DNA of 64,000 nucleotides from Amphiscolops sp. MND2022 (lineage: Eukaryota): contig OZ076409.1 in the NCBI GenBank assembly GCA_964187785.1, positions 74,030,001 to 74,094,000 on the forward strand, written 5' to 3'. A model generated the notes under the pieces. It saw nothing but the letters and a program-made list of their open reading frames with translations. It ran no database searches and was not told where the DNA came from. A program made the translations under genes and the position numbers. This document shows, one piece after another, positions 18,830 to 64,000 of this stretch (positions within the stretch are counted from its first letter, which is position 1; the number at the start of each line of letters is the position of its first letter).

Positions 18830-19085
18830 ACAGGTAATTTTTGGTAACAAGTACGTCTGGTAAGATTTCGGCTAAAGCAGCTAATGGTGTAATCAGTGAT
18901 CGACGTAAAGCGTGGTTGGTGATTAGGTGATTTAAACAAAAATAAGTCGTGTTTCATCAAAAAGCAGCGAATGATGTGCCTCTCTCTGGTGATGTCTAAC
19001 ACAATGATTTTTTAAGACGTTTTTTTAAGATTTGATCTGTTTGAATTGAACCATGACACGTGGTGGAGACCGAGGACATTCTTGA
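18830..19085 (+). repeat. Diverged direct repeat of the ORF1 upstream region and first codons (7853-8220)
   Basis: Shared blocks: ACAGGTA..TTTGGTAACA..TACGTCTGGTAAG, GATCGACG.AAAGCGTGGT.GGTGATTAGGTG and TGATGTCTAACA. ATGACACGTGGTGGAGACCGAGGA (19053) resembles ATGCCTCGTGGTAGAGGGAGAGGA (8191). Confidence 0.8.
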
Positions 19086-20201
19086 ACATCATTAACCACT
19101 AATTAACCTCTAAACCAACACCCGACTGACGACGACTTCTCCAATCACGTGAGTAACTTTCCTTATCAACACTTTCCCGCCTACTGGACTCTTCGTTTTG
19201 CCGTCCACGTCTAGGTGGCCACGACCATGGTTTCTTGCGTATCTTGTCGAATCTTTTGTCGTTGCCGGCCGGGGAGGGACCCGTTTGCCGGCGTGTGTAG
19301 TGTGGGGCCCCCATACCCAAAAAGTGGTATTTTTTTCAGAGATCTCAAAATCGGCCCATCAGAATTGCCTGAAATTTGGCATGAGGCTCCCAATTGGGGA
19401 AAAAATAAGAAGTGTAGGAGGCGACTTGTTCGGGTAAATATTGTATGTTGACTTTTGGCCAAAATAGTGTTCCCCCCCCAACATGGGCAAAATCACATGA
19501 GGTGTAAAAATATGATCACAACTTTTGAACCTTTGGATTTTGGGGTACGGTCGTGGACCACATTAAGCAAGAGCTTTGGTGAGCAGGTAGGATAGATGGG
19601 TTTTGATCCCAGTACCTTCAACCACTTTTGAGAAATTAACGTTTCAAACAAACATCCGGGAGGTTTATGTTGCCCCTGAAGGCAGGTTTTTCGCCATTTT
19701 CAATGTGAAGGAGTGGGTTTAGCGCAACGTGTGTGGGGTGCTTTTTTGTTGCCCGTGTGCGGAGCGTTGTATAGAGGTGCTGGTTGTTGAAATTGGAAAA
19801 GTTGGTAAAAAGTTATACCTATACCCCCCCTACTGTCTCTGCCATTCAATTTTTTTTTCAACTTCAGGCCTCCCAAAGGTGAGAAACTTCCACACAACTA
19901 GTATTGCAAGTGAATGCATGTGGAAAGTACTCGGATAGACGAGAAAAATGAGCTATAGAACGACTCTGTAGCTTAACTTGACGTTGACTTATGACATTTT
20001 GAGTGTGAGCTTGCTATGTGAGAAAAAAATTCAAAATTTAAAATCGAAGCGAAGTCTCATCCAAAACTCATCGAAATACGTTCAATCCATCCCAAAGCGG
20101 ATTAATTCCAGATATATAGTGCAGCAACACTATTCAAGACCATTTGACACAATTTTACTAGTTTTGACATTGTATTATTCATCCGAGAGCACAAAACAGT
20201 T

Positions 20202-20244
20202 GGGTACATTCCATCTCCCTTTCGGGGGAGATGAGAATGTACCC
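20202..20244 (+). other. Conserved internal long hairpin of the 1.3-kb cassettes (example copy)
   Basis: Consensus GAGTACATTC-CATCTCCC-loop-GGGAGATG-A-GAATGTACTC. It lies ~260-310 bp upstream of the junction in the 1.3-kb units. Confidence 0.85.
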
Positions 20245-20446
20245 GCTAAATGACACGCACCATGGCCTAATTTTTACCTTTATGCGACGTTTTCTAGGCT
20301 TTCGCGCAAGCCCACTAATATTTACATTGGTTTCTTTCTCTTTCACTCCAAACTTTCCGTCCGTACTAACCACCTTACACACCACCAGCTCAACGACACA
20401 TCTGTAACGTCAACGCCACATACTTGCATCAACGCCCACCGTCCGT

Positions 20447-20519
20447 GGGCATGCCGAGGCATGCCCTTCGACGACGTATGCCCGTTGTCACAACAGGGCG
20501 CCCCCATTCCCGCTAGGTG
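20447..20519 (+). terminator. Cassette right end: 9-bp GC-rich hairpin + variable spacer + CTAGGTG junction (example copy); putative rolling-circle termination signal
   Basis: GGGCATGCC-GA-GGCATGCCC at 20447-20466 and CTAGGTG at 20513-20519. This matches the Helitron hairpin + CTRR 3' end, although the spacer is longer than usual. Confidence 0.75.
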
Positions 20520-23090
20520 CCGGGATTTCTATTCGATAAAGTATGTTGCGCGTGTGGGTAGGGTCCCTGGCGCGCTCTTGGGTATGGTGTTCACCAGCTA
20601 GGAAATAGGGGTCGATTTTTCGGGATCTCCTAAACTAGCCACACGATTTGGCTGAAATTTGGCACACGTACCCCCCTCGGCATGGTGAAGATGATTCCCT
20701 ACTAGCGTTTTGCTCGCAAAATTTTTTTTGTTGTCCAAAATAACGGTTTTTGGGGGAAAATTTTGAATTTTTTTTAAATTTTATCTTATATCTCGCCACC
20801 GGTTTACGCTAGCGCTTCAAAACCTTGCTAAGGAAAACTTGCAAACTGTCTCAGGAATGCTGTGTGAAAATTTCAGCTCAATCGGACTTAAACTTGGGGA
20901 GATATAGCGTTTTTCCGGAGCGGGGGGGTTTCATTTTTCTAACGGTCCAGCTTATCTTTGCCATTTTTTCGAAAATGCACTCGCCTAAAGGCCTCCCCTG
21001 GCCGGTTTTATTCCCAGCAAAACCATTTGGCCCTAAATACGGAGTTTCAGCGTTCCAGCATTCCCGGGCGAAAAGTTGTGGGACTTAGAAAAGTTCAAAA
21101 ATTTTCAAAAAAATTTTTTTCCGTTTTCCGCCCTCCCCCCCTAGGGGAAAAGACCCCCCAACCAGTAATTTGAGTGAATTCATGTGGAAAGGCCATGTTT
21201 AGAGGAGAAAAATGCCGTTTAGATCGTCTTTTTATCTTGGCTCAACGTTGACTTATGACGTTTTGAAGGTGATGTTTGGAGGTGTAAAGCACGTGAATAG
21301 TAAATGTTATGAGTATTTATCTGATCTGAAAGCCATTGAGATGCAACCTGGTTTGCTCAAAACGTAATTCATATCAGTTTGGTAGTCAATCAACACCCTT
21401 TGTTGTCATTTGACATCTTTTTTTGTTGATATAAGAAAAAATTTCGTGTATTTATTCATTTTTTTCTCATCAAATAACTTGAAACAGTTGAGTACATTCC
21501 ATCCCCCCCTTCCGGGGGAGATGAGAATGTACTCGCAAAAAGCCCCGAACTACGGCCCTTACCTTCCTGAGCTACGCAGTATAAAGATTGCATATTGGTT
21601 CCGACATTTTGATAGAGTTATATCTTGGTAATCTGTCTGGGTATGCAGAAAAACCAGCACGTGCTTTTTTATACCAAGTTGCTTACAACGACATTTATTT
21701 TATATCAACGCCCCCATATTTATCAACGCCCCCCGTCCGTGGGCATGCCGAGGCATGCCCTTCGACGACGTATACCAAGATATACATCGAGCGCGTTAGC
21801 CTAGGTGCCGGTGTCTTTTTACACAATGGGGGAAGTTGCGCGGTTGGGGAGGGTCCCTGACGCGCTTCCGTGAGATCAGGTTTTTCAACTAGTGAAATCG
21901 ACAAAGAAAATTGAGATCTCGTAAACTAGCCATACGATTTGGCTGAAATTTGGCACACGTACCCCCCTCGGCACGGTGAAGATGATTTCCTACTGACGTT
22001 TTTCCCGCTAAACATTTTTTGTTGACCAAAATAACGGTTTTTGGGGTAAAATTTTCAACTTTTTTTAAATTTCATCTTATATCTCGCCACGGGTACACGC
22101 TAGCGCTTCCAAACCTTGCTGACGAAAGTTTGCAAACTGTCTCAGGAATGCTGTGTGAAAATTTCAGCTCAATCGGACTTAAACTCGAGGAGATATAGCG
22201 TTTTTCCGGAGCGGGGGGGTTTCATTTTTCTAACGGTCCAGCTTATCTTTGCCATTTTTTCGAAAATGCACTCGCCTAAAGGCCTCCCCTGGCCGGTTTT
22301 ATTCCCAGCAAAACCATTTGGCCCTAAATACGGAGTTTCAGCGTTCCAGCATTTTCGGGCGAAAAGTTGTGGGACTTAGAAAATTTCAAAAATTTTCAAA
22401 AATTTTTTTTTCGTTATTTGGGCCCCCAAAGTGGGGGAAAAGACCCCCCAACCAGTAAATCAAGTGAATGCATGTGGAAAGGCCATGTTTAGAGGAGAAA
22501 AATGCCGTTTAGAACGTCTTTTTATCTTGGCTCAACGTTGACTTATGACGTTTTGAAGGTGATGTTTGGCGGTGTAAAGCAAGTGAATAGTAAACGTTAT
22601 GAGTATTTATCTGATCTGAAAGCCATTGAGATGCAATATGATTGCTCAAAACGTAATTCATTGCAGTTTGGCAATCAATAAACACCCTTTGTTGTCGTTT
22701 GACATACTTTTTTGTTGTTAAAATAAAAAATTTTGTGTATTTATTCATTTTTTTCTCATCAAATAACTTGGAACAGTTGAGTACATTCCATCCCCCCCTT
22801 CCGGGGGAGATGAGAATGTACTCGCAAAAAGCACCGAACTACGGCCCTTACCTTCCCGAGCTACGCAGTATAAGGATTACATATTGGTTCCGACATTTTC
22901 ATAGAGTTATATCTTGGTAATCTGTCTGGATATGCCGAAAAATCAGCACGTGCCTTTTAATACCAAGTTGCTCACAACGACAATTATTTTATATCAACGC
23001 CCCCATATTTATCAACGCCCCCCGTCCGTGGGCATGCCGAGGCATGCCCTTCGACGACCCGCACCAAAATATGCGTTAGCGCGGTAGCCG

Positions 23091-24380
23091 CTAGGTGCCG
23101 GGATTTCTATTCGTTCGAGTATGTGGCGCGTGTGGGTAGGGCCCCTGGCGCGCTCTTGTGTTTGGGGGTTTCCTACTTCTAAATCACGTTCAGATTTCCG
23201 GGATCTCGTAAACTATCCATACGATTTGGCTGAAATTTGGCACACGTACCCCCCTCGGCACGGTGAAGATGATTTCCTACTGACGTTTTTCCCGCTAAAC
23301 ATTTTTTGTTGACCAAAATAACGGTTTTTGGTGGAAAATTTTTGATTTTTTTTTAAATTTTATCTTATATCTCGCCACGGGTCCACGCTAGCGCTTCCAA
23401 ACCTTGCTGACGAAACCTCGCAAACTTTCTCAGGAATGCTGTGTGAAATTTTCAGCTCAATCGGACTTAAACTCGGGGAGATATAGCGTTTTTCCGGAGC
23501 GGGGGGGTTTCATTTTTCTAACGGTCCAGCTTATCTTTGCCATTTTTTCGAAAATGCACTCGCCTAAAGGCCTCCCCTGGCCGGTTTTACTCCCAAAAAA
23601 ACCATTTGGCCCTAAATACGGAGTTTCAGCGTTCTAGCATTCCGGGGCGAAAAGTTGTGGTACTTAGTAAATTTCAAAAATTTTCAAAATTTTTTTTTTC
23701 GTTATTTGGGCCCCCAAAGTGGGGGAAAAGACCCCCCAACCAGTAATTTGAGTGAATTCATGTGGAAAGGCCATGTTTAGCGGCGAAAAATGCTTTTTAG
23801 ATCGTCTTTTTATTTTAACCTGTTGTTGACTTATGTTGTTTTGAAGGTGATGTTTGGATGTGTGAAGCATGTGAAAAGGTAATTTTTTGTGTCTTTATCT
23901 CTTCTAAAAGCCATTGAGATGCAATCTGTTTTGCTCAAAACGTAATTCAATGCAATTTGGCAGTCAATGAACACAATTTGGTGTCTTTTGTTATATTTTT
24001 CTGTTGATATAATAAAAAATTTTGTGTCTTTATTATTTTTTTTTAAATAAAATAACTTGAAACAGTTGAGTACATTCCATCCCCCCTTCCGGGGGAGATG
24101 GAAATGTACTCGCTAAAAGCCGCGAACAAGAGCCCATACCTTCCTGCGCTACGCAGTATAAAGATTGCATGTTGGTTCCGACTTTTTGGTAGTGTTATAT
24201 CTTGGTAATTTGACTGAATATGGAGAAAAATCAGCAAGTGCTCTTTTATAGCAAATTGCTGACAACGACAATTTTTTTATATCAACGCCCCCATATTTAT
24301 CAACGCCCCCCGTCCGTGGGCATGCCGAGGCATGCCCTTCGACGACGTATACCAAGATATACTCCCGAGCGCGGTAGCCG
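23091..24380 (+). mobile_element. Cassette type C; near-identical copies at 42288-43576 and 48680-49968
   Basis: The copies share a start (CCGGGATTTCTATTCGTTCGAG) and an end (ATACTCCCGAGCGCGGTAGCCG). Identical spurious 77-aa translations occur at 23404, 42600 and 48992. Confidence 0.8.
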
Positions 24381-25645
24381 CTAGGTGCCGGGATTTCTAT
24401 TCGATAAAGTAAGTTGCGCGGTTGGGTAGGGCCCCGTGAGCGCGCCCGTGTCTGTGTTTTTTGAACCTGAATTTGCGGGTGCCAAAATAGACGATCTCCT
24501 AAACTATCCATACGATTTTGCTCAAATTTGGCATACGGGTTCCTGAGACAGATATAAGAACTAATTCCTACTGGCGTTTTGCCCGGAAAATTTTTTTTGT
24601 TGCGCAAACTTGAAATTTTTGACAAAAAAATGCGATTTTTTTTGAAAAATTTTTTTTGAGAGGCCATATCTTTTTTCAGGGTGCCCGGAGCGGGACGCGT
24701 TAAACTGATTATAAACTCTACGGTTCATGGGCTTTACGGAGAACCTAGGCTCGTTTCGATCGGACAAATAGTCTTGGAGATACAACGGCATTTTTTGGGA
24801 ATTTTTTGGAAATTTTTCTAACGGTCCAGCTTATCTTTGCCATTTTTTCGAAAATGTACTCGCCTAAAGGCCTCCCCTGGCCGGTTTTAATCCCAGCAAA
24901 ACCATTTGGCCCTAAATACGGAGTTTCAGCGTTCTAGCATTCCCGGGCGAAAAGTTGTGGGACTTAGAAAATTTTTTTGAAAACGCAAAATGTGTAAAGT
25001 CAACTTCAGGCCTCCCAAAGTCAAGAAACTTCCACACAACTAGGATTGCAAGTGAATGCATGTGGAAAGTACTCGAATAGAAGAGAAAAATGAGCTATTA
25101 TAAAACTCTGTAGCTTAACCTGACGTTGACTTATGACAATTTTAGTGTGAGCTTGCTGTGTGAGAAAAAAATTCAAAAATTGAAAATCGATTTAAGTCTC
25201 ATCCAAAACTCATCGGAACACGTTCAGTCCATCCCAGAGCGGTTTATTTCCAGCTCTGTAGTGCAACAACGCCATTCAAGGTCAATTGACTCATTTTTAA
25301 AGGATTTGAAATTGTCTTATTCATCCGATAGCACAAAACAGTTGAGTACATTCCATCTCCCCTCCGTGGGAGATGAGAATGTACTCGCTAAAGTCCAGAT
25401 ACCACAGCCCATATTTGTTTCTCTGCGACGCCATCTATGCTATTGCACATAACTACTAGTCTATTGACTTAATATTGCCTTCACTTTGCTATGACATATG
25501 CTAAACGTTTGGTCCTTACAACAACATACTCATGACAAACGTCAACGCCACATACTGTTACCAACGCCCACCGTCCGTGGGCATGCCGAGGCATGCCCCT
25601 CGACGACGTATGCCAAATACCTTAAAACCGACGCGCACTCTTTCG

Positions 25646-26932
25646 CTAGGTGGCCGGAAATTTTTTTTTTCATCAAAATCTTTGCCATTGGGGGAGGGGC
25701 CCCGGATGGCCAGTAGTACGGGATAGCTTCCTACCAAATCCAGATGGAAAAAACGTGATTTCGGAAACTAGCCGTCAGAATTTGCTCAAATTTTGCATAC
25801 GGCTTCCTATGACAATCCTAAGAACTAATCCCTACTGGCATTTTGCCCAAAAAACGCAAAAAGTTGGTCAAAATCTTAGTTTTTTGGTCAAAAAATGGCG
25901 TTTTTTCGAAAAAAAATTTTTTCAGAGACAATTACTCGTAACTGGTTCACCCAGCGCAAAAACGCCTAGCTGATTTATTGTTGGGCACTTCATGAGGAGT
26001 GCGTATACAAATTTTCGTCCAAATCGAATGAAAGTTGATTGAGAAATAACTGAAAATTTGAGGCATTTTTTTGGAAATTTTTGAAAACCTAGTCTATCTC
26101 TGCCGTTTTTTGCCCAGATTTTTTTCCAGGTCCTCTCCTAAAGGCCTCCCCTGGCCGGTTTACTTCCCAGAAAAACCAATTGGCCCTAAATACGGAGTTT
26201 CAGCGTTCTAGCATTCCCGGGCGAAAAGATGTGGGACTTAGAAAAAATTCAAAATTTTTCAAAATTTTTTTTTTCGTTTTCCGGCCCCCCAATGAAGGGA
26301 AACGACCCCACAACGAGGATTTTTGGTGAATTCACGTGGAAAGGCCTTGTTTTGTGGAGCAAATTGCCGTTTAGAGCGACTTTTTATCTTAACTTGACGT
26401 TGACCTCTGTCGTTTTGAATTTGATATTAGTATGTGTTGAGCATGTGAAAAGTTGATGATTTCAGTTGTTCTCTCGTGTTCAAGCCATTGAGATACAAGC
26501 GGTAGTGATCAAAATGTGATTTATCGCAATTTGGTGGTGCTTTTGGTGTATTTTGATTCTTTTAAATAAAAAGTTGTTCTTTATATATTTGGTGTATTGA
26601 TTCAAATGAACAAGAAACAGTTGAGTACATTTCATCTCCCCCCTTGTGGGGGAGATGAGGATGTACCCGCTAAATGACACGCACAATGGCCCAATTTTAT
26701 TTTTTTGCGACGTTTTCTAGGCTTTTGCGCAAGCCGACTAAAATTTAGACTGGTTTCCTTTTCTTTTACTCCAAAATTTTCCGTACTAACCACCTTACCC
26801 ACCACCAGCTCAACGTAACATCTGTAACGTCAACGCCACACACTCTCACTCACGCCCACCGTCCGTGGGCATGCCGAGGCATGCCCTTCGACGACGTATG
26901 CCAAATAGCGCCACAGGGCGCAAACTTGTCCG
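25646..26932 (+). mobile_element. Cassette type E; near-identical copy at 51236-52522
   Basis: The copies share a start (GCCGGAAATTTTT..CATCAAAATC) and an end (GGGCGCAAACTTGTCCG). Both are 1287 bp, with identical translations at 26480 and 52070. Confidence 0.8.
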
Positions 26933-28321
26933 CTAGGTGGTTGGGGCGGTCCCCAGAACGCACAAGGAGGCGCGGGGAGGGTCCTGCGCCGACGTAGAAT
27001 AATTTCATATAATACTAGTATCCTACATGGGTGTTTTAGAAGCGATTTTGGAATCTAACCGTAGGATTTGGATAATTTTTTGCATGCGGCCATAACTCAA
27101 AATTCTAAGAACTTTTTCCTACTGTCATTTTCCCCGCAAAATGTTTTTTGTTGACTTATGGCCGAAAAACCGGAAATAACGTCCTTTTTAGACGTTATAT
27201 CCGAAGTGTCGTCATAACTTTTTTCCAGGGCATGCTAGCGTTCTCGTTCACTTTTACACTTAGTTGCAGCATCTCAAAATACAACTGGTGGAAAATTTTG
27301 ATTGCATTCGGATCACCCCCCACCGAGATAGAAGGGTTCCCCCCTCCAGTTTTACCCCCCAAATTTGCGAAAAAGCCAATTTTGAGCATGAAGCCGAGGA
27401 TTTAGCGTACCCGCACCCCTCTGATGTTTTGTTGTACGTATTGGGGTCAATCGGACGACATGTGTGGTTTTCACCCCCAACCCCCCCTGGGACCGGAAAT
27501 GACACTTTTTTGTGTTTTTTGGCAGAAATTAGCCTTTTCCATTATTTGGCAGTCGTTTTAGGGACTCCTAGCAGGATATCGAAATTGAAATACAACCTGG
27601 TCACAACCCAGTGACAACATGTTGGCCATTTGGAGGTACCATCATGACCGGAAGTGGGGTCAACCCCCCTTTTTGTGACCGCTTTTTGACCTTGTGAACC
27701 AAAATGCCAACAACTTGAGGCCTAATGACGCATTCAAATCTGGACAAAGATAGAATGTTAGACAACCAAAGTCCCGGAAGATCTTTAGCATATACCGGCA
27801 GTTACCCCCCATGACCGGAAGTTACCCAATGTGACCGGAAATGGTCCAAAAATTAATGTAAAGATGAATTTTTCACTATTTCAAGACCACTTGATTGAAC
27901 ATTTTCATTCCCAAAACTAGCGTACTGGCTTGTTTTGCTGAATTTATGGAAATTGATGAGCCCTATCACCCCCGATAGCCTTCGAAGTTGACCTTGCGTC
28001 AACTTTGGGGGCTATCGATACTGAAAATGAACAACAAAGTACATTGTTGCTCTCGGTTTTTTCCCGTTGTTTTTCCTCAAACATTCTTGAGACATATACA
28101 TGGCCGTTAGTTGAAATCAATATTTAGCCCATGTTATAGCTGGAGCAGCGAAGCGTTACACAGACTAGTGTCGTTTTGAAAATTACATTGTTTAAATTAA
28201 CAACTGACCGTCTTTGTCAACTCCACACATTCATACCAACGTCCACCGTCTGTGGGCATGCCGAGGCATGCCCTTCGACGACGTATGACGAATCCACTCC
28301 AACGACACCCGCAGTCCTCAG
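26933..28321 (+). mobile_element. Divergent 1389-bp cassette (type F) with ACCGGAAr motifs and a GATAGCC-class hairpin
   Basis: Standard ends with an interior unlike the main family. The hairpin is at 27973-28017. Confidence 0.75.
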
Positions 28322-30873
28322 CTAGGTGCCGGGATTTCTATTCGATAAAGTATGTGGCGCGTGTGGGTAGGGCCCCTGGCGCGCTCTTGGGTATGGTGTT
28401 CACCAGCTAGGAAACAGGGGTCGATTTTTCGGGATCTCCTAAACTAGCCACACGATTTGGCTGAAATTTGGCACACGTACTCCCCTCGGCATGGTGAAGA
28501 TGATTCCCTACTAGCGTTTTGCTCGCAAAATTTTTTTTGTTGTCCAAAATAACGGTTTTTGGGGGAAAATTTTGAACTTTTTTTAAATTTCATCTTATAT
28601 CTCGCCACGGGTTTACGCTAGCGCTTCAAAACCCTGCTAAAGAAAGCTTGCAAACTGTCTCAGGAATGCGGTGTGAAGTTTTCAGCTCAATCGGACTTAA
28701 ACTCAGGGAGATATAGCGTTTTTCCGGAGCGGGGGGGTTTCATTTTTCTAACGGTCCAGCTTATCTTAGCCATTTTTTCGAAAATGTACTCGCCTAAAGA
28801 CCTCCCCTGGCCGGTTTTATTCCCAGCAAAACCATTTGGCCCTAAATACGGAGTTTCAGCGTTCCAGCATTCCCGGGCGAAAAGTTGTGAGACTTAGAAA
28901 ATTTCAAAAATTTTCAAATTTTTTTTTCCGTTTTCCGCCCTCCCCCCCGAGGGGAAAAGACCCCCCAACCAGTAATTTGAGTGAATTCATGTGGAAAGGC
29001 CATGTTTAGAGGAGAAAAATCCCGTTTAAATTGTCTTTTTATCTTTATTCAACGTTGACTTATGACGTTTTGAAGGTGATGTTTGGAGGTGTGAAGCACG
29101 TGAAAAGTAAACGTTATGAGTTTTTATCTGATCTGAAAGCCATTGAGATGCAACCTGTTTTGCTCAAAACGTAATTCATATCAGTTTGGTAGTCAATCAA
29201 CACCCTTTGTTGTCATTTGACATCTTTTTTTGTTGATATAAGAAAAAATTTCGTGTATTTATTCATTTTTTTCTCATCAAATAACTTGAAACAGTTGAGT
29301 ACATTCCATCCCCCCTTCACGGGGGAGATGAGAATGTACTCGCAAAAAGCCCCGAACTACGACCCTTACCTTCCTGAGCTACGCAGTATAAAGATTGCAT
29401 ATTGGTTCCGACATTTTGATAGAGTTATATCTTGGTAATCTGTCTGGGTATGCAGAAAAACCAGCACGTGCTTTTTTATACCAAGTTGCTCACAACGACA
29501 TTTATTTTATATCAACGCCCCCATATTTATCAACGCCCCCCGTCCGTGGGCATGCCGAGGCATGCCCTTCGACGACGTATACCAAGATATGTTCGAGCGC
29601 GTTAGCCTAGGTGCCGGGATTTCTATTCGATAAAGTATTTTGCGCGGTTGGGTAGGGCCCCGTGAGCGCGCCAGGGGATTGTGTTAGAACAACAAGGATT
29701 TGGGCATCAGTTGGGAGCGATTTTCTAAACTATCCGTACGATTTTGCTGAAATTTGGCACGAAGCTTCCTTGGAACATTCTAAGAACAAATCCCTACTGG
29801 CGTTTTGCTGGGAAAAATCAAAAAGTTGGTCAAAAATGCGATTTTCCGACAAAATTTTGGGGTAAAATTTTTTTGAAACGTTATATCTCGCCACAGGGTC
29901 ACGCTAGCGCCTCGCAACCTATGATCGTGTTTTGTTGGGCGTTGTCTGTAGAACACGTATGCCAAATTTGGTGGCGATCGGACTTAAACTCAGCGAGTTA
30001 GAGCGATTTTTTAGGTGAATTTTTTGACATTTTTTGCATTTGCCGATTTATCTCTGCCGTTTTTGCCCAGATTTTTTTGAGACACTCTCCTAAAGACCTC
30101 CCCTGGCCGGTTTACCTCCCAGCAAAACCATTTGGCCCTAAATACGAAGTTTCAGCTTTCTAGCAATCCCGGGCGAAAAGTTATGGGACTTAGAAAATTT
30201 TTTCGAAAACGCAAAATGTGTAAAGTCAACTTCAGGCCTCCCAAAGTCAAGGAACTTCCACACAACTTGTATTGCAAGTGAATGCATGTGGAAAGTACTG
30301 GAATGGACGAGGAAAATGAGCTATAGAACGTCTCTGTATCTTAACCTGACGTTGACTTATGGTGTTTTGAAAGTGGGCTTCCTGAGGGGTCTGAAAAGCA
30401 AAAATTAAAAATGGAAACTAAGTCTTATTGAAAACTCAGCGGATTCCGTGCAATCGACCCCAGAACGTGCTCAATTGTAGTTTCTTAATCTATCAACGCC
30501 ATTCAAGGTCTTTTGACTAATGTTGAAAAAATTGATACCGTATTATTCATCCGAGAGCACGAAACAGTTGAGTACATTCCATCTCCCTTTCGGGGGAGAT
30601 GAGAATGTACTCGCTAAAGTCCAGGTACTACAGCCCATATTTGTTTTTATGCGGCGCTCTTTATACTAGTGTGTATACGTATTAATCTTTTAACTGAATT
30701 TTCTTTTGTCTACACTTTGAGTTTGACTTGACATATACTGAAAGTTTTTGTCCTTACAACATACACATGACTTACGTCAACGCCCCATCCTTGCATCAAC
30801 GCCCACCGTCCGTGGGCATGCCGAGGCATGCCCTTCGACGACCCGCACCAAAATATACGTCGAGCGCGTTAGC

Positions 30874-37400: not shown

Positions 37401-37540
37401 CACACCATGTGACTCAACTATAACATGTATGTAATGAAACCAATAACACCTTCAACTATCAACGCCCACCGTCTGTAGGCATGCCGAGGCATGCCTTTCG
37501 ACGACGCGCGCCGAATACAAATTAACGGCGCCACCCGCTT
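34469..37540 (+). mobile_element. 3072-bp cassette (type J) carrying ~1.9 kb of sequence not repeated in the window
   Basis: Standard left motifs and a terminal hairpin variant AGGCATGCC-GA-GGCATGCCT (37477-37496). The interior, ~35570-37440, has no visible match elsewhere. Confidence 0.75.
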
Positions 37541-53400: not shown

Positions 53401-56400
53401 AACACCCTTTGTTGTCGTTTGACATACTTTTTTGTTGTTATAATAAAAAATTTTGTGTATTTATTCATTTTTTTCTCATCTAATAACTTGAAACAGTTGA
53501 GTACATTCCATCCCCCCCTTCCGGGGGAGATGAGAATGTACTCGCAAAAAGCACCGAACTACGGCCCTTACCTTCCCGAGCTACGCAGTATAAGGATTAC
53601 ATATTGGTTCCGACATTTTCATAGAGTTAAATCTTGGTAATCTGTCTGGATATGCAGAAAAACCAGCACGTGCTTTTTTATACCAAGTTGCTTACAACGA
53701 CAATTATTTTATATCAACGCCCCCATATTTATCAACGCCCCCCGTCCGTGGGCATGCCGAGGCATGCCCTTCGACGACGTATACCAAGATATGTTCGAGC
53801 GCGTTAGCCTAGGTGCCGGGATTTCCATTCGATAAGGAATTCTGCGCGTGTGGGTAGGGCCCCTGGCGCGCTCCTGTGTTTTGGGTTTTCCTACTCTAAA
53901 TTCACACATCAGTTATCTCGGATCTCGAAAACTAGCCACACGATTTGGCTGAAATTTGGCACACAGCTCCGTTGGAACATTGTAAGAACAAATCCCTACT
54001 GACGTTTTGCCCGCTAAACATTTTTTGTTGGTCAAAAATGCGATTTTCCGACAAAATTTTTGACTTTTTTTTCTTTTTCAACTCATATCTCGCCACAGGG
54101 TCACGCTAGCGCTTTGCAACCTATGATCCTTTTTTGTAGGGCATGGCATGTAGAACACGTATGCCAAATTTGGTGGCGATCGGACTTAAACTCAAGGAGA
54201 TATAACGATTTTTTAGGTGCATTTTTTGACATTTTTTGCATTTGCTGATTTATCTTTGCCGTTTTTTGCCCAGATTTTTTTGAGACACTCTCCTAAAGAC
54301 CTCCCCTGGCCGGTTTACTCCCCAGAAAAACCATTTGGCCCTAAATACGGAGTTTCAGCGTTCTAGCATTCCCGGGCGAAAAGTTGTGGGACTTAGAAGA
54401 ATTTTTTGGAAACGCAAAATGTGTAAAGTCAACTTCAGGCCTCCTAAAGTCAAGGAACTTCCACACAACTAGTATTGCAAGTGGATGCATGTGGAAAGTA
54501 CTGGGATAGACGAGAAAAATGAGCTATAGAACGACTCTGTAGCTTAACTTGACGTTGACTTATGATGTTTTGAGTGTGTGCTTGCTAAGGGGTTCGAAAT
54601 TGAAAATTTTTAAAGAAAATTAATATCGTTAAAAATTCATCGGAATGCCTGCAATATACAGTAGAGCGTGTTCAATTGTAGCTGACTAATGCATCAACGC
54701 TGTTCAAGGTCTTTCAACTCAGTTTCAAATTTTTTTACACTGTATTATCCATCCGAGAGTTCGAACCAGTTGAGTACATTCCATCTCCCTCCCGAGGGAG
54801 ATGAGAATGTACTCGCTAAAGTACAGATACCACGACCCATATTTGTTTCTCTGCAACGCAAACATTTGCTAGTGCACATAAATAGTGATCTTTTGACTGA
54901 ATTCTGTATTTACATTGACGTGACATATGCTGAACGTTCGGTTCTTACAACATACACATGACAAACGTCAACGCCACATACTGTTACCAACGCCCACCGT
55001 CCGTGGGCATGCCGAGGCATGCCCTTCGACGACGTATGCCAAATACTTTTGACCGACGCGCACTCTCCCGCTAGGTGCCGGTGTTTTTTTACACAATGGG
55101 GGAAGTTGCGCGGTTGGGGAGGGTCCCTGACGCGCTTCCGTGGTATCGGGTCTTTCAACCGATGAAAACGACATAAAAAATTGGGATCTCGTAAACTAGC
55201 CATACGATTTGGCTGAAATTTGGCACACGTACCCCCCTCGGCACGGTGAAGATGATTCCCTACTGACGTTTTCCCCGCTAAACATTTTTTGTTGACCAAA
55301 ATAACGGTTTTTGGGGTAAAATTTTCAACTTTTTTTAAATTTCATCTTATATCTCGCCACGGGTACACGCTAGCGCTTCCAAACCTTGCTGACGAAAGTT
55401 TGCAAACTGTCTCAGGAATGCTGTGTGAAATTTTCAGCTCAATCGGATTTAAACTCAGGGAGAAATAGCGTTTTTCCGGAGCGGGGGGGTTTCATTTTTC
55501 TAACGGTCCAGCTTATCTTTGCCATTTTTTCGAAAATGCACTCGCCTAAAGGCCTCCCCTGGCCGGTTTTATTCCCAGCAAAACCATTTGGCCCTAAATA
55601 CGGAGTTTCAGCGTTCCAGCATTCCCGGGCGAAAAGTTGTGGGACTTAGAAAATTTCAAAAATTATCAAAAAATTTTTTTTCCGTTATTTGGGCCCCCAA
55701 AGTGGGGGAAAAGACCCCCCAACCAGTAAGGCAAGTGAATGCATGTGCAAAGCCCTTGTTTAGAGGAGAAAAATGCCGTTTAGAACGTCTTTTTATCTTG
55801 GCTCAACGTTGACTTATGACGTTTTGAAGGTGATGTTTGGAGGTGTAAAGCACGTGAATAGTAAACGTTATGAGTATTTATCTGATCTGAAAGCCATTGA
55901 GATGCAATATGGTTTGCTCAAAACGTAATTCATTGCAGTTTGGCAATCAATCAACACCCTTTGTTGTCGTTTGACATACTTTTTTGTTGTTATAATAAAA
56001 AATTTTGTGTATTTATTCATTTTTTTCTCATCAAATAACTTGGAACAGTTGAGTACATTCCATCCCCCCCTTCCGGGGGAGATGAGAATGTACTCGCAAA
56101 AAGCACCGAACTACGGCCCTTACCTTCCCGAGCTACGCATTATAAGGATTACATATTGGTTCCGACATTTTCATAGAGTTAAATCTTGGTAATCTGTCTG
56201 GATATGCCGAAAAATCAGCACGTGCCTTTTAATACCAAGTTGCTCACAACGACAATTATTTTATATCAACGCCCCCATATTTATCAACGCCCCCCGTCCG
56301 TGGGCATGCCGAGGCATGCCCTTCGACGACGTATACCAAGATATGCGTTAACGCGTTAGCCTAGGTGCCGGGATTTCTATTCGATAAAGTATGTGGCGCG

Positions 56401-59400
56401 CCTTGGGTAGGGTCCCTTGCGCGCTTTTGGGTATGGTGTTCACCAGCTAGGAAATAGGGGTCGATTTTTCGGGATCTCCTAAACTAGCCACACGATTTGG
56501 CTGAAATTTGGCACACGTACTCCCCTCGGCACGGTGAAGATGATTTCCTACTGACGTTTTTCCCGCAAAATTTTTTTTGTTGTCCAAAATAACGGTTTTT
56601 GGTGGAAAATTTTGAATTTTTTTTAAATTTTATCTTATATCTCGCCACCGGTTTACGCTAGCGCTTCAAAACCCTGCTAAAGAAAGCTTGCAAACTGTCT
56701 CAGGAATGCGGTGTGAAATTTTCAGCACAATCGGACTTAAACTCAAGGAGATATAGCGTTTTTCCGGAGCGGGGGGGTTTCATTTTTCTAACGGTCCAGC
56801 TTATCTTAGCCATTTTTTCGAAAATGTACTCGCCTAAAGACCTCTCCTGGCCGGTTTTATTCCCAGCAAAACCATTTGGCCCTAAATACGGAGTTTCAGC
56901 GTTCCAGCATTCCCAGGCGAAAAGTTGTGGGACTTAGAAAAGTTCAAAAATTTTCAAAAATTTTTTTTCGGTTTTCCGCCCTCCCCCCCGAGGGGTAAAG
57001 ACCCCCCAACCAGTAATTTGAGTGAATTCATGTGGAAAGGCCATGTTTAGAGGAGAAAAATCCCGTTTAAATCGTCTTTTTATCTTTATTCAACGTTGAC
57101 TTATGACGTTTTGAAGGTGATGTTTGGAAGGTGTGAAGCACGTGAAAAGTAAACGTTATGAGTATTTATCTGATCTGAAAGCCATTGAGATGCAATCTGT
57201 TTTGCTCAAAACGTAATTCATATCCGTTTGGTAGTCAATCAACACCCTTTGTTGTCATTTGACATCTTTTTTGTTGAAATAAGAAAAAATTTTGTGTATT
57301 TATTCATTTTTTTCTCATCAAATAACTTGAAACAGTTGAGTACATTCCATCCCCCCTTCACGGGGGAGATGAGAATGTACTCGCAAAAAGCCCCAAACTA
57401 CGGCCCTTACCTTCCTGAGCTACGCAGTATAAAGATTGCATATTGGTTCCGACATTTTAATAGAGTTATATCTTGGTAATCTGTCTGGGTATGCAGAAAA
57501 ACCAGCACGTGCTTTTTTATACCAAGTTGCTCACAACGACATTTATTTTATATCAACGCCCCCATATTTATCAACGCCCCCCGTCCGTGGGCATGCCGAG
57601 GCATGCCCTTCGACGACGTATACCAAGATATGTTCGAGCGCGTTAGCCTAGGTGCCGGTGTATTTTTACACAAAGGGGGATGTTGCGCGTGTGGGGAGGG
57701 TCCCTGACGCGCTCCCGGGATTTCGGATTTTTTAACCTTTACGTACCCATCAAAAATTTTGGGATCTCGAAAACTAGCCGTACGATTTGGCTGAAATTTG
57801 GCACACGTACCCCCCTCGGCACGGTGAAGATGATTTCCTACTGACGTTTTTCCCGCTAAACATTTTTTGTTGACCAAAATAACGGTTTTTGGGGTAAAAT
57901 TTTCAACTTTTTTTAAATTTCATCTTATATCTCGCCACGGGTACACGCTAGCGCTTTCGAACCTTGCTGACGAAAGTTTGCAAACTGTCTCAGGAATGCT
58001 GTGTGAAAATTTCAGCTCAATCGGACTTAAACTCGGGGAGATATAGAGTTTTTCCGGAGCGGGGGGGTTTCATTTTTCTAACGGTCCAGCTTATCTTTGC
58101 CATTTTTTCGAAAATGCACTCGCCTAAAGGCCTCCCCTGGCCGGTTTTATTCCCAGCAAAACCATTTGGCCCTAAATACGGAGTTTCAGCGTTCCAGCCT
58201 TCCGGGGCGAAAAGTTGTGGGACTTAGAAAAATTTCAAAAATTTTCGAATTTTTTTTCCGTTTTCCGGCCCCTCCCCCGAGGGGAAAAGTCCCCCCAACC
58301 AGTAATTTGAGTGAATTTATGTGGAAAGGCCATGTTTAGACGAAAAAATTGCCGTTTAGAACGTCTTTCTATCTCAACCTGACATTGACTTATGAAGCTT
58401 TAATGGTGATGTTTGGACGTGTGAAGCATGTAAAAAAAGGAATTTTTTTGATTTTATTTCATCAGAAAGTCATTGAATCACACGCTGTGAAGCCCAGAGC
58501 GTGGTTTCTAATAGTTTGGTATCGTTTAAACGCATTTTGGTGTCTTTTTACTCTGTTTAAAAAACTTTTCTCCTGAAAATTAATAAATTTTGATTACTTT
58601 TCTTACTTTCCATTAATTTTTTTTTCTTATATTTTTACTTGAAACAGTTGAGTACATTCCATCTCCCTTCCCGGGGGAGATGAGAATGTACTCGCAAAAA
58701 GCCGCGAACTACGGCCCATACCTTCTCGAGATACGCAGTATAAAGATAACATAATGGTCCAGACATTTTAATGGAGTTGTATCTTGGTAATATGTCTGGA
58801 TTTGCAGAAAAATCAGCACGTGCCATTTTATACCAAGTTGCTCGCAACGACAATTAATTTAAATCAACGCCCCCCACAAAAATCAACGCCCCCCGTCCGT
58901 GGGCATGCCGAGGCATGCCCTTCGACGACGTGCACCAAAATATGCCCCGAGCGCGTTAGCAGCTAGGTGCCGGGATTTCTATTCGATAAAGTAAGTTGCG
59001 CGATTGGGTAGGGCCCCGTGAGCGCGCCCGTGTCTGTGTTTTTTGAACCTGAATTTGCGGGTGCCAAAATAGACGATCTCCTAAACTATCCGTACGATTT
59101 GGCTCAAATTTGGCATACGGGTTCCTGAGACAGATATAAGAACTAATTCCTACTGGCGTTTTGCCCGGAAAATTTTTTTTGTTGCGCAAACTTGAAATTT
59201 TTGACAAAAAAATGCGATTTTTTTTGAAAAATTTTTTTTGAGAGGCCATATCTTTTTTCAGGGAGCCCGGAGCGGGACGCGTTAAACTGATTATAAACTC
59301 TACGGTTCACGGGCTGTACGGGGAACCTTTTTTTGTTGGAATCCGACTTGTAGATTTTGAGATATATTATCAAATTTGGGTGTTTTTTTTCCAATTTTTC

Positions 59401-62400
59401 GAAAAACCTGGTTTATCTCTGCCGTTTTTGCCCAGATTTTTTTCGAGACACTCTCCTAAAGACCTCCCCTGGCCGGTTTACCTCCCAGCAAAACCATTTG
59501 GCCCTAAATACGAAGTTTCAGCGTTCTAGCAATCCCGGGCGAAAAGTTATGGGACTTAGAAAATTTTTTCGAAAACGCAAAATGTGTAAAGTCAACTTCA
59601 GGCCTCCCAAAGTCAAGGAACTTCCACACAACTAGTATTGCAAGTGAATGCATGCGGAAAGTACTCGAATAGGCAAGGAAAATGAGCTATAGAACGTCTC
59701 TGTATCTTAACCTGACGTTGACTTATGGTGTTTTGAATGTGGGCTTCCTGAGGGGTCTGAAAAGCAAAAATTAAAAATGGAAACTAAGTCTTATTGAAAA
59801 GCCACCGGATTCCGTGCAATCGACCCCAGAGCGTGCTCAATTGTGGTTTCCTAATATATCAACGCCATTCAAGGTCTTTTGACTAATGTTGAAAAAATTG
59901 ATACCGCATTATTCATCCGAGAGCACGAAACAGTTGAGTACATTCCATCTCCCTTTCGGGGGAGATGAGAATGTACTCGCTAAAGTCCAGGTACTACAGC
60001 CCAAATTTGTTTTTATGCGGCGCTCTTTATACTAGTGTGTACACGTATTAATCTTTTAACTGAATTTTCTTTTGTCTGCACTTTGAGTTTGACTTGACAT
60101 ATACTGAAAGTTTTTGTCCTTACAACATACACATGACTAACGTCAACGCCCCATCCTTGCATCAACGCCCACCGTCCGTGGGCATGCCGAGGCATGCCCT
60201 TCGACGACGTATAGCAAGATATACCTTGAGCGCGTTAGCCTAGGTGGCCGGGAATTTTTTTTCCTGCATTTTTCTGTCCAATTGGGGGAGGGGCCCCAAG
60301 TGGCTGTTATCCGGTTTTACTACCTACCCTAAACACGCTCAAAAAATGACGATCTCGAAAACCACCCCTTAGATTTTCCTGAAACTTTGCATACAGGCTT
60401 AGAATCAAATCCTAAGAACTATTTCCTACTGGCGTTTTTCTGAATTTTTTCAAAAAGTTGGTCAAAAATGCAACAAAAGTTGCCAACGGACATAAAAAAC
60501 GCAACTTTTCGACTTTGAGGGCTCATAACTTTTTCCAGAGTGCCCGGAGCGATTCGCACAGTGAGAACAATATTGCTCAGCATTGTTGGAGGAGTGCGTG
60601 GACAAATTTGGGGTTGAATTGGATGAAAATTGACTGAGAAATAAACAAAAATGTTCGTGCATTTGTTGCAAATACCAGTTTATCTCTGCCATTTTCGCCC
60701 AAAATTTTTCCCAGAGCCTTTACAGGAGGCAACCCCTGCCCAAATTTCTGCCGAGCAAACCCATTTGGCCCTAAATACGAGGTTTCAGCGTTCTAGCATT
60801 TCCGGGCAAAAAGTTGTGGGACTTAGAAAAATTTCAAAAAACCGCAAAAACTGTAAAAAGTAACTTCTGGCGTCCCAAAGTCAAGAAACTTTCACACAAC
60901 TAGTATTGCAAGTGAATGCATGTGGAAAGTACTCGGATAGACGAGAAAAATGAGCTATAGAACGACTCTGTAGCTTAATTTGACGTTGACTTATGACATT
61001 TTGAGTGTGAGCATCCTATAGGATTTTAATGTCAAAAATGAGATTTTGTAAGTCATGTCTAATCAAAAACTCATCGGAATACGTTCAATCATCCCCATAG
61101 CTGTTCAATTACAGTGGCTCAGTAGAGCAACGCCATTTAATGTCCTTGAACCCATTTTGAAAATTTTCCTTACCGTCTTATTCGTCCGATATCACGAAAC
61201 AGTTGAGTACATTCCATCTCCCCCCTTGTGGGGGAGATGAGAATGTACTCGCCAAAGACCTGATACAGTGGCCCATATTGAGTTTTATTTGACCTTTCTC
61301 ACGATATTGCACACGGATAGCTGTGTTTGGTAAAAGTTTTCCTTTGCACAATGTCTCCAGAAGCTAAACCACTTCTTAAGCTTACACTTCTACTCAAACA
61401 TCACCAACGTCAACGCCACATACTCGCATCAACGCCCACCGTCCGTGGGCATGCCGAGGCATGCCCTTCGACGACGTATGCCAAATAGCGCCACCTGGCG
61501 CCCCCAATTTCCGCTAGGTGCCGGGATTTCTATTCGATAAAGTATGTGGCGCGTGTGGGTAGGGTCCCTGGCGCGCTCTTGGGTATGGTGTTCACCAGCT
61601 AGGAAATAGGGGTCGATTTTTCGGGATCTCCTAAACTAGCCACACGATTTGGCTGAAATTTGGCACACGTACCCCCCTCGGCACGGTGAAGATGATTTCC
61701 TACTGACGTTTTTCCCGCAAAATTTTTTTTGTTGTCCAAAATAACGGTTTTTGGGGTAAAATTTTGAATTTTTTTTAAATTTTATCTTATATCTCGCCAC
61801 CGGTTTACGCTAGCGCTTCAAAACCCTGCTAAAGAAAGCTTGCAAACTGTCTCAGGAATGCGGTGTGAAATTTTCAGCTCAATCGGACTTAAACTCGGGG
61901 AGATATAGCGTTTTTCCGGAGCGGGGGGGTTTCATTTTTCTAACGGTCCAGCTTATCTTTGCCATTTTTTCGAAAATGCACTCGCCTAAAGGCCTCCCCT
62001 GGCCGGTTTTATTCCCAGCAAAACCATTTGGCCCTAAATACGGAGTTTCAGCGTTCCAGCATTCCCGGGCGAAAAGTTGTGGGACTTAGAAAAGTTCAAA
62101 AATTTTCAAAAAAATTTTTTTCCGTTATTTGGGCCCCCAAAGTGGGGGAAAAGACCCCCCAACCAGTAAAGCAAGTGAATGCATGTGCAAAGCCCATGTT
62201 TAGAGGAGAAAAATGCCGTTTAGAACGTCTTTTTATCTTGGCTCAACGTTGACTTATGACGTTTTGAAGGTGATGATTGGAGGTGTAAAGCACGTGAATA
62301 GTAAACGTTATGAGTATTTATCTGATCTGAAAGCCATTGAGATGCAATATGGTTTGCTCAAAACGTAATTCATGGCAGTTTGGCAATCAATCAACACCCT

Positions 62401-64000
62401 TTGTTGTCGTTTGACATACTTTTGTGTTGTTATAATAAAAAATTTTGTGTATTTATTCATTTTTTTCACATCAAATAACTTGAAACAGTTGAGTACATTC
62501 CATCCCCCCCTTCCGGGGGAGATGAGAATGTACTCGCAAAAAGCACCGAACTACGGCCCTTACCTTCCCGAGCTACGCAGTATAAGGATTGCATATTGGT
62601 TCCGACATTTTGATAGAGTTATATCTTGGTAATCTGTCTGGATATGCAGAAAAACCAGCACGTGCTTTTTTATACCAAGTTGCTTACAACGACAATTATT
62701 TTATATCAACGCCCCCATATTTATCAACGCCCCCCGTCCGTGGGCATGCCGAGGCATGCCCTTCGACGACGTATACCAAGATATACATCGAGCGCGTTAG
62801 CCTAGGTGCCGGGATTTCTATTCGATAAAGTATTTTGCGCGGTTGGGTAGGGCCCCGTGAGCGCGCCAGGGGATTGTGTTAGAACAACCGGAAATTCGGC
62901 ATACGATTTTGGCGATTTTCTAAACTATCCATACGATTTGGCTCAAATTTGGCATACGGGTTCCTGAGACAGATATAAGAACTAATTCCTACTGGCGTTT
63001 TGCCCGGAAAATTTTTTTTGTTGCCCAAAATTGAAATTTTCGGCAAAAAAATGCGATTTTTTTTGAAAAATTTTTTTTGAGAGGCCATATCTTTTTTCAG
63101 GGAGCCCGGAGCGGGACGCGTTAAACTAATTATAAACTCTACGGTTCATGGGCTTTACGGAGAACCTAGGCTCGTTTCGATCGGACAAATAGTCTTGGAG
63201 ATATAACTGCATTTTTTGGGAATTTTTTGGAAATTTTTCTAACGGTCCAGCTTATCTTTGCCATTTTTTCGAAAATGTACTCGCCTAAAGGCCTCCCCTG
63301 GCCGGTTTTATTCCCAGCAAAACCATTTGGCCCTAAATACGGAGTTTCAGCGTTCCAGCATTCCCGGGCGAAAAGTTGTGGGACTTAGAATAATTTTTTG
63401 GAAACGCAAAATGTGTAAAGTCAACTTCAGGCCTCCCAAAGTCAAGGAACTTCCACACAACTAGTATTGCAAGTGAATGCATGTGGAGAGTACTCGAATA
63501 GACGAGGAAAATGAGCTGTAGAACGTCTCTGTAGCTTAACCTGACGTTGACTTATGACCTTTTGAGTGTGAGCTTGCTATGCGAGAAAAAATGCAAAACA
63601 TGAAAATGGAAGCAAAGTATCGTCGAAAACCCATCATAAGATGTTCAACTCATCCTAGAGCGGTTTATTTACAGTTGTTTAGTAGAGCAACACCATTCAT
63701 GATCATGTGACCCATTTTTATGGGGAATGAGATTGTCTTATTCATCCGATAGCCCAAAGCAGTTGAGTACATTCCATCTCACCTCCGTGTGAGATGAGAA
63801 TGTACTCGCTAAAGTCCAGGTACTACAGCCCATATTGGTTTTATGCGCCGCTCTGTATGCAAAAGAGCATACTTGACATTTTATAGCTGATATTTTTTTA
63901 AACTGCACTTTGACTCTGACCTGACATACTGAATATTTAGTCCTTATAACATACACATAATTAACGTCAACGCCCCATCCTTGCATCAACGCCCACCGTC

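Follow-up and report, generated by a model that had tools for sequence, protein, structure and literature searches.

Mixed head-to-tail arrays of Helitron-like elements in Amphiscolops and their likely growth by insertion at tail-to-head junctions

The array and its units

The window analysed here, a stretch of 64,000 nucleotides from an Amphiscolops genome, lies in an array of Helitron-like elements joined head to tail on the plus strand (1..64000 and beyond), which junction sampling in both flanks extends to about G000:C1:70.455-76.485 Mb, a chain of about 6 Mb in one orientation on a eukaryotic chromosome. Plus-strand junctions were present in 18 of 18 samples taken between 70.46 and 76.2 Mb and minus-strand junctions in none of them. 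The window with 100 kb on either side contains 135 junctions and 134 units with zero host DNA in between, the array covering positions 1-19211 as well as at least 100 kb on each side of the window. The heptamer CTAGGTG occurs 35 times on the plus strand of the window and twice on the minus strand, while base composition predicts about three per strand. Each junction, such as CTAG/GTG at 19211..19217 (plus strand, one of 36 in the window), joins the 3' end of one element to the 5' start of its downstream neighbour. After it lie 31 non-autonomous units in shuffled order (19215..62805, plus strand), which measure 1.26-1.41 kb except for two of 2.2 kb and one of 3.07 kb. The 32 unit labels of a first-pass annotation of this region agree in number with the 32 junctions at 19211-62808, of which 31 read CTAGGTG and one, at 37541, reads CTGGGTG; this variant junction (CTGG/GTG, 37541..37547, plus strand) arises from a CTGG end that is a property of the 3.07-kb family.

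Element ends were assigned from host edges and nested insertions. A set of 445 units falls into 76 families at 85% identity, with neighbours mostly of different families; their 3' ends are CTAG in 406 and CTGG in 36, and the 5' start is GTG, host edges included. The array units are Helitron-like rolling-circle transposons with ends 5'-GTG...CT(A/G)G-3', and the junction is a tail-to-head seam, CTRG/GTG, not the crossover site of a recombinase. All 13 large contigs carry dispersed single copies and small arrays, among them one of a single size class (eight units of about 2 kb at C1:29.53 Mb). One array begins next to an RRM exon, on its intron side.

Both ends carry hairpins. The 5' hairpin, seen for example at 20548..20575 (plus strand), has the core GG(T/G)AGGGNCC and lies about 40 nt after the junction; this core was a criterion in defining junctions, so that its invariance partly reflects that choice. 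Its stem arms co-vary between families, since the folding energy of 43 non-redundant hairpins is -8.8 kcal/mol, compared with -6.5 once the arms are swapped, and none of 5000 arm permutations was as low as the real set. The 3' subterminal block, a perfect 9-bp hairpin and predicted terminator (21739..21769, plus strand, in one unit), lies 30-50 nt before CTAG and is found in 391 of the 445 units; its 29-nt core has 4239 exact copies in the genome. The autonomous-type element of the window (6950-19214) lacks this common block. A terminal inverted repeat or junction stem-loop formed between the tail and head of one unit was rejected (-5.8 kcal/mol against -6.0 for permuted pairs), no minus-strand self matches were found at E 1e-10, and a search of positions 5600-40000 against Rfam gave no match.

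The RepHel transposase and its relatives

The element at 6950..19214 (plus strand, 12,265 bp, GTG...CTAG, junctions 6946 and 19211) is a frameshifted copy of an autonomous-type RepHel element, 96% identical over its full length to a copy on C8 that has an intact 2370-aa ORF and other neighbours. Its RepHel gene is split into an N-terminal part of 533 aa (8191..9792, plus strand), which in intact copies is in the same frame as the next part, and an ORF at 9738..15314 (plus strand) in which Pfam recognises Helitron_like_N, the HUH Rep domain (about 11289-11585), a Pif1 helicase (about 13524-13925) and a C-terminal GIY-YIG nuclease (about 14967-15185). An accessory ORF of 194 aa (17630..18214, plus strand) has no Pfam match, and its sequence matches in the PDB are at chance level (E 0.7-1.4). 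The HUH and YxxxY motifs are conserved, H261, H263 and Y432 being invariant in 50 sequences and Y436 present in at least 90%, and as judged from sequence the catalytic motifs of RepHel are intact. A sequence-profile search of the PDB with Rep returned no HUH protein; the match came from fold comparison, the predicted Rep fold aligning with Helraiser (7LCC) at Z 14.3 and rmsd 3.9 over 327 residues with 15% identity.

Elements that carry RepHel are themselves array units with the same ends. Ten elements longer than 5.5 kb are bounded by array junctions on either side, and distant RepHel subfamilies (32-41% Rep identity) are directly followed by array units in 8 of 10 cases. Across 264 kb of array there are four long ORFs, in three elements, and all are RepHel or its split N-terminal part; no recombinase was found among the array ORFs of at least 400 aa. 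RepHel relatives with GIY-YIG form 377 protein clusters at E<=1e-30, and matching ends were seen at none of 18 metagenome loci with related transposases, most of these contigs being too short.

With HLE1 (Helraiser, wheat Xuan-Feng) the array elements share a RepHel with HUH, two tyrosines and Pif1, a 3' CTRR end, an upstream hairpin in most units (here 30-50 nt upstream instead of 10-15), the lack of target duplication, non-autonomous partners and a Rep fold like that of 7LCC. They differ in starting with GTG and not TC, in targeting CTDG^DT and not A^T, in their conserved 5' hairpin and C-terminal GIY-YIG, and in having nearly all copies in mixed arrays. With HLE2 (Helentron, Helitron2) they have in common hairpins at both ends, a transposase fused to an additional endonuclease and, in some database relatives, OTU domains; however, they have neither the asymmetric terminal inverted repeats nor the T^T target of that group. 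The HLE2 marker DUF6570 was found in none of 18 relatives and none of three array proteins scanned, against 7 of the 12 further Helitron ORFs examined from the Amphiscolops genome. In Rep and helicase trees the array RepHel separated from five to six DUF6570 elements of the Amphiscolops genome, and from seven canonical-type rows with an SH-aLRT of 99, these rows being one family of this genome in an unrooted tree where long branches meet. The Rep tree excludes L165, P0072 and P0185 (no motif anchor), a second Rep tree excludes L164, canonical rows are absent from the helicase tree, neither tree includes L112 or L118, and L166 and L167 were called array-type by similarity only. These trees suggest that the array RepHel is a clade apart from HLE1 and HLE2. 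HelenSM92, presented as an HLE2 element with GIY-YIG in passages of PMC11417382, was set beside the array elements by description only.

Long head-to-tail Helitron arrays, tandem or centromeric, have been described in plants, bats and Drosophila as rolling-circle concatemers, according to excerpts citing Xiong et al. 2016 (PMC6591975, PMC11934779); here, in contrast, neighbours are mostly of different families and near-identical copies rarely adjoin. The telomere-targeted Helitrons of Paramecium form a clade outside HLE1 and HLE2 with an absolute orientation bias and an inferred integration specificity (PMC13085455). Compared by description they share these three traits with the array elements, but their target is the host telomeric repeat, whereas here it would be the element's own seam. 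Passages of PMC5876387 describe site-specific HUH integration without target duplication for IS91 and IS608. Both features are shared with the elements described here, IS91 and IS608 being bacterial and devoid of a helicase. Mixed head-to-tail arrays of related elements are also formed by HeT-A, TART and TAHRE of Drosophila. Those are retrotransposons added at chromosome ends, whereas the arrays studied here show no consistent polarity. In the literature covered, outside which lie most subscription papers and the Repbase reports, we found no description of junction-targeted mixed Helitron arrays or of a GIY-YIG RepHel clade.

Insertion site and proposed mechanism

Isolated and nested copies show precise insertion at CT(A/G/T)G^(A/G/T)T without target duplication. 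This site loosely resembles the circle junction of the element itself, and the cut position in it is ambiguous by one base because the G is shared. The left flank reads CT(A/G/T)G at 8 of 8 host edges and the right flank (A/G/T)T, and all 13 heads chosen only for an upstream BG have CT before it. CTAG as a 4-bp target duplication was rejected, the left and right tetramers differing in four of the five insertions seen at both ends. Two internal junction-like sites of A-type units (CTTG^GT and CTGG^GT, 21624..21642, plus strand) are empty in the window and each is filled by a nested unit in a copy on C8, whose flanks minus both inserts show no substitution over 133 nt against the window units at 29375 and 48449. 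Outside the 134 units of the window and its flanks, nested insertions amount to three cases. Paralogous empty host sites, sought for two loci, were not found. Genome-wide, GTG comes directly after one end type in 2003 of 2086 copies, taken as the start of the next unit without copy-by-copy inspection, the remaining copies having GT[ACT] (32), G[ACG] (2) or A/T (49), in a genome with an estimated 4 million look-alike target sites (from about 38 kb of host DNA). Selection against dispersed copies together with growth inside arrays could inflate this 96% share of GTG, which would weaken the case for self-targeting.

We consider it likely that RepHel copies one unit at a time into existing CTRG^GTG junctions and that the array grows in this way, a mechanism drawn from one assembly. 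From sequence evidence we infer that the transposase behind the array insertions is probably self-targeting. By analogy with Helraiser chemistry, the HUH domain would nick at CTRG^G, the helicase would peel off one strand up to the next CTRG, and the unit would circularise with a CTRG/GTG junction; passages of PMC5876387 describe Helraiser circles with a precise RTS-LTS junction. Each seam combines the circle-junction sequence with a 5' hairpin 40 nt downstream and would therefore be the best integration substrate. The SLX1-like GIY-YIG domain may nick the target. Insertion at a seam would yield one new seam and set the orientation, new arrays would start from rare insertions at look-alike host sites, occasional dimers would result when a 3' end is read through, and homologous recombination or template switching would produce internal mosaics.

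Unit order and alternative explanations

A junction census of 19211-62808 confirmed the shuffled unit order with breakpoints at junctions reported in the first-pass annotation, including the quoted junction pairs (26933/52523, 47401/51236, 25646/51236 and 30874/37541) and the type C end followed by D, A or K. No higher-order period had been seen, and indeed lags of 1 to 16 give at most four label matches against a shuffle mean of 4.6, with no satellite-type periodicity of multi-unit blocks within the window; an A-G dimer occurring three times is at chance level (P=0.24). The left-end labels hold for the ends but, taken as unit types, they hide mosaics, as whole-unit identities under one label are 84% for D-D, 90% for G-G, 78% for H-H and 84-98% for B-B. 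The proposal that the single unit is the mobile entity is upheld by copies at least 97% identical, which share a neighbour in 2 of 67 pairs on each side and whose identity stops at the junction. Near-identical copies with unrelated neighbours are also found on different chromosomes. The suggested site-specific exchange stands as to the position of the breakpoint; copying and insertion are documented, whereas excision is not.

In a minority of cases two or three units are carried together. The two-unit block at 44868..47404 (plus strand) is found again, complete, about 82 kb downstream (99.7% and 99.8%), likely by read-through copying or segmental duplication, and a second at 55075..57651 (plus strand) recurs downstream at 98.4% and 97.8%, both just outside the window. 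Shared dimers number 2 of 67, 10 of 91 and 3 of 39 pairs in three arrays; the ten, which include a repeated three-unit block, compare with 2.1 expected, so that multi-unit duplication also acts. Many units are internal mosaics, with 35 switch pairs at scattered points among 75 units, as exemplified by the unit at 29611..30877 (plus strand), whose first 545 nt or so are 98% like unit 44868 and whose remainder is closest to unit 58967. Same-family neighbours number 33 against 20.7 in local shuffles and head similarity is in excess along two of three arrays, a clustering of related families which indicates that junction choice is not uniform. Polar, stack-like growth was rejected, position against best outside identity giving rho of -0.41, +0.40 and +0.06 in three arrays.

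The same transposase might instead build mixed multimers off the chromosome, by circle-into-circle joining or template switching at junctions, and integrate them as blocks. The chemistry and seams would be identical, and both the clustering of families and the small one-size arrays such as that at C1:29.53 Mb are in keeping with this. However, blocks predict neighbours in common between arrays, which near-identical copies have on only 2 of 224 sides; units inserted singly are found both in host DNA and within other units, and a uniformly oriented array of 6 Mb requires repeated growth in situ. We regard this explanation as possible but unlikely.

Less likely still are rolling-circle concatemers scrambled later, satellite-like, by unequal crossover and gene conversion. 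Tandem Helitron arrays have been ascribed to such concatemers in works cited in passages of PMC11934779 and PMC5876387, and internal mosaics and some repeated blocks do exist here. Runs of identical units would be expected, whereas adjacent copies at least 97% identical number two against 1.0 expected, and families too unlike to align meet at exact seams. Crossover in the hairpin block would link a tail to the next unit, but the 30-45-nt tail goes with its own body in 73% of 113 pairs and with the next unit in 3% of 152. The head spacer likewise travels with its own unit. Breakpoints within the hairpin block, which the first-pass annotation had named as evidence for homologous recombination, were not seen, exchange inside the 3' block is rejected, and the neighbour and tail-linkage data already largely refute this scenario.

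Very unlikely, too, is a loose insertion specificity (CTDG^DT) with arrays arising from chromatin targeting and selection against copies elsewhere: the copies and small arrays dispersed over all 13 large contigs and the array starting beside the RRM exon would suit it, but 258 look-alike sites inside the 134 units are all empty while every unit sits between seams, so that regional targeting or selection offers no explanation. Finally, an integron-like system, in which cassettes would be cut out and put back by a tyrosine or serine recombinase through crossover within the 7-bp CTAGGTG core, would fit the fixed seam, single orientation and shuffled order, but is the least probable, since the long ORFs in the 264 kb of array scanned are all RepHel-derived with carriers that are themselves units, the CTRG end is a Helitron signature, and host targets share with the core only CT-G and T, with A, G or T right after the cut.

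Tandem Helitrons are already known and are usually read as rolling-circle concatemers, and in the common view Helitrons can insert almost anywhere that offers an AT or TT dinucleotide. Beyond growth by seam insertion, the broader reading, to which we give even chances, is that a separate and widespread Helitron-like class (RepHel with SLX1-like GIY-YIG) integrates at its own tail-to-head seam, dozens of families sharing and extending a megabase safe harbour, the equivalent of integron-like cassette arrays made by a eukaryotic DNA transposon. Structure-based Helitron finders, as passages of PMC11417382 describe them, look for TC...CTRR or TIR signals; GTG...CTRG ends fall outside these, and such arrays may thus be unannotated elsewhere. 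If our reading is correct, target choice by a eukaryotic HUH transposase could be tested directly on a short defined sequence, CTRG^GTG together with the hairpin, and the enzyme would be a candidate site-specific, oriented and stackable integrator. Transposons could in this way also give rise to megabase satellite-like DNA without being homogenised. Insertion at seams would keep most copies away from host genes, and a preference for the element's own seam as target would account for the persistence, at low cost and in one genome, of many families whose transposases are intact.

Extent and composition of the array

The heptamer CTAGGTG, which joins the tail of one unit to the head of the next (CTRG|GTG, the seam), occurs 35 times on the plus strand of the window and twice on the minus strand, where base composition predicts about three per strand. 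The 31 occurrences from 19211 onward and a CTGGGTG at 37541 correspond to the 32 labels (A to N) of the first-pass annotation, which are based on left ends only; whole-unit identity within one label can be low (D 84%, G 90%, H 78%). Extended by 100 kb on either side, the window (G000:C1:74030001-74094000, in a eukaryotic assembly of 1.07 Gb) consists of 134 consecutive units without interruption, delimited by 135 junctions that all lie on the plus strand. The large array starts near 70,454,835 on contig C1. Plus-strand junctions were found in 18 of 18 samples from 70.46 to 76.2 Mb, none being reversed, the last units were observed near 76,485,000, within a stretch containing an assembly gap, and three samples from 76.5 Mb onward had no array junctions. 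Further arrays are present on C1, C2, C6, C8 and C10. A 29-nt core sequence from the 3' hairpin occurs 4239 times in exact form in the genome, and clustering at 85% identity sorts the 445 units delimited in this analysis into 76 families. An assembly artefact is an unlikely source of the array, because the 134 units split into 94 clusters at 97% identity; the shuffled megabase array is a real feature.

Inside the large array, at G000:C1:72444504 (L063), the end of a unit on the minus strand directly meets a head in inverted orientation, representing a local inversion or a head-to-head join. At G000:C1:23975296-23979644 (L025-L026) units in opposite orientation flank an assembly gap of 200 N, which may reflect an inversion made in scaffolding. 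An RRM exon (Pfam RRM_1) lies about 100 nt from the start of another array (L030, G000:C1:24019693-24019993), which apparently begins within an intron; we take the gene to resemble a nuclear poly(A)-binding protein. In the window, a degenerate extra 3' hairpin block (39452-39482) lies about 200 nt inside a 2.18-kb unit, with no seam after it.

Unit order, breakpoints and target site

When the array was re-cut, its order proved as shuffled as the first-pass annotation had claimed, each quoted junction pair reading as written, and no lag in the window label order exceeded shuffles, in line with the proposed lack of a higher-order period. The proposal that breakpoints lie at the junction was likewise borne out: among pairs at least 97% identical, the left neighbour was common to 2 of 67 and the right to 2 of 67, which represent two dimers, and across arrays neighbours were common on 2 of 224 sides. 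Exchange did not map to the hairpin block. The tail from this block to CTRG matched in 73% of 113 same-body pairs versus 3% of 152 same-next-unit pairs, and the head spacer in 100% of 147 same-body pairs versus 9% of 88 same-previous-end pairs. Tail and head spacer go with their own body, which places the breakpoints at the seam. The idea that single units move was upheld only in part: common neighbours are few, but another array has 10 dimers in common among 91 pairs (2.1 expected) and a third has 3 among 39 (1.5 expected), identity switches internally in 35 pairs among 75 short units, with switch points lying between about 145 and 1115 nt, and related families are clustered along arrays. These three observations speak against purely single-unit movement.

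At host edges the left flank terminates with CTAG, CTGG or CTTG in 8 of 8 cases, GTG being the unit start, and in 13 of 13 heads chosen solely for a non-A base plus G directly upstream, this dinucleotide is itself preceded by CT. The bases following end type GCGGTAGCNGCTAG are GTG (2003), GT[ACT] (32), G[ACG] (2), A (37), T (12) and C (0), and the second base after the end is T in 19 of 22 loci not selected for T. On C8, two units are nested within one A-type unit, at CTTG^GT and CTGG^GT; with these removed, the flanks show 0 substitutions over 133 nt relative to empty window units. Taken together, these data indicate that the element runs from GTG to CTRG and that its target is CT(A/G/T)G^(A/G/T)T, with no target duplication; owing to a shared G at this position, the cut could lie one base earlier. 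A 5' hairpin with arms that co-vary over 43 families lies about 40 nt into every unit, and the 3' hairpin block is present in 391 of 445 units; terminal inverted pairing of units was looked for and not found.

The RepHel transposase and its place among Helitrons

The 12,265-bp unit at 6950-19214 encodes a RepHel (Pfam Helitron_like_N, PIF1 and GIY-YIG), here in two frames; a copy at 96% identity, located on C8 among different neighbours, has a single 2370-aa frame. A second RepHel about 177 kb downstream (G000:C1:74217793) shows 100% Rep identity (window 11100-12300) and a similarly shortened 1894-aa frame, so the frameshifted element itself may have been copied in trans. Searching the genome with Rep yielded 109 matches; many belong to frames longer than 2,100 aa, and many lie within the large array. 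Ten elements above 5.5 kb are bounded by seams on both sides. Among ten distant subfamilies, array units directly follow the RepHel element in eight, one has a seam-like site with an LTR-type element beyond it, and no downstream seam was seen for one. All of 50 sequences compared keep the HUH histidines and the first tyrosine, and the predicted fold of the Rep region (AlphaFold2, pLDDT 84.5) has Helraiser 7LCC as its sole clear match (Foldseek E 3e-8; Z 14.3, next-best 5.9). The GIY-YIG domain retains its motif residues; a PDB sequence search returned five weak matches, four of them SLX1 (E 0.02-0.5). Up to about 800 bp of 5' sequence is common to short and autonomous units, at up to 95% identity, indicating that the short units are non-autonomous partners of RepHel elements.

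The autonomous element also holds a plus-strand accessory ORF of 194 aa (17630-18214), possibly an SGNH/GDSL hydrolase judging from its motifs, with no Pfam match and PDB matches at chance level only. In several distant subfamilies, second ORFs of 300-440 aa with common N-terminal motifs lie downstream of RepHel (L113:1644-2534, L114:8313-9344, L116:8077-9288, L119:1952-2932, L122:5695-7017, L124:7180-8496, L129:977-1870); they had no meaningful Pfam match, and the one tried had no PDB match. A gag-like ORF on C5 (L114:4314-6053; DUF1759, zinc knuckle), likely of BEL/Pao type, starts shortly 3' of a CTAG|GTG seam that belongs to a RepHel element.

The array elements are members of the Helitron superfamily and Helitron-like in their working. 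They differ from HLE1 in lacking the 5' TC start and A^T insertion, and from HLE2 in lacking T^T insertion and DUF6570, inverted repeats not having been found either; PMC11417382 describes the features of both classes and GIY-YIG in one HLE2 family. A branch with SH-aLRT 99 in the Rep trees places the array proteins together with 23 database relatives, opposite 7 canonical-type and 5-6 DUF6570 rows, all from this genome, and the helicase tree separates this group from 5 DUF6570 rows. The trees are quick and unrooted, with thin references and long branches, so they make a separate clade likely without proving it. Helitrons of canonical type and several DUF6570 (HLE2) families are present in the same genome (L157-L172, L132-L156); no array seams were seen within the 10-kb stretches L157-L172, a weak control.

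Probable targeting of the seam

According to PMC5876387, Helitron copying yields circles with a precise tail-to-head junction in Helraiser. For the array elements, such a junction would read CTRG|GTG followed by the 5' hairpin, the same as every array seam, and seams would be the sites at which the transposase integrates most readily; the GIY-YIG domain might, at a guess, nick the hairpin-bearing target. The preference is not merely regional, because all 258 look-alike sites inside the 134 units are unoccupied and GTG follows 96% of one end type, despite some 4 million look-alike sites genome-wide (estimated from about 38 kb of host DNA). Near-identical units in many places demonstrate copying; they do not demonstrate excision. 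Concatemer formation predicts runs of identical units; adjacent near-identical pairs numbered 2 against 1.0 expected, and it is considered unlikely. Insertion of these Helitron-like elements at their own seam is the probable process by which the shuffled megabase arrays are built.

Relatives of the RepHel protein form 377 clusters at E<=1e-30, extend to metagenome contigs of 32-57% GC and carry GIY-YIG in 15 of 18 tested; by these matches, the protein group is widespread. Metagenome relatives (L233, L234, L239, L241, L242, L247) often have a long reverse-strand ORF of 420-1050 aa directly downstream, without Pfam matches in the four scanned. PMC5148889 describes Helitron self-insertion giving nested or chimeric elements, with one case of three tandem copies. 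No description of seam-targeted mixed arrays was found in the incompletely covered literature, which also included PMC13286980, PMC13404089, PMC11934779, PMC6591975, PMC8788227, PMC13085455 and bioRxiv 10.64898/2026.09.17.752431.
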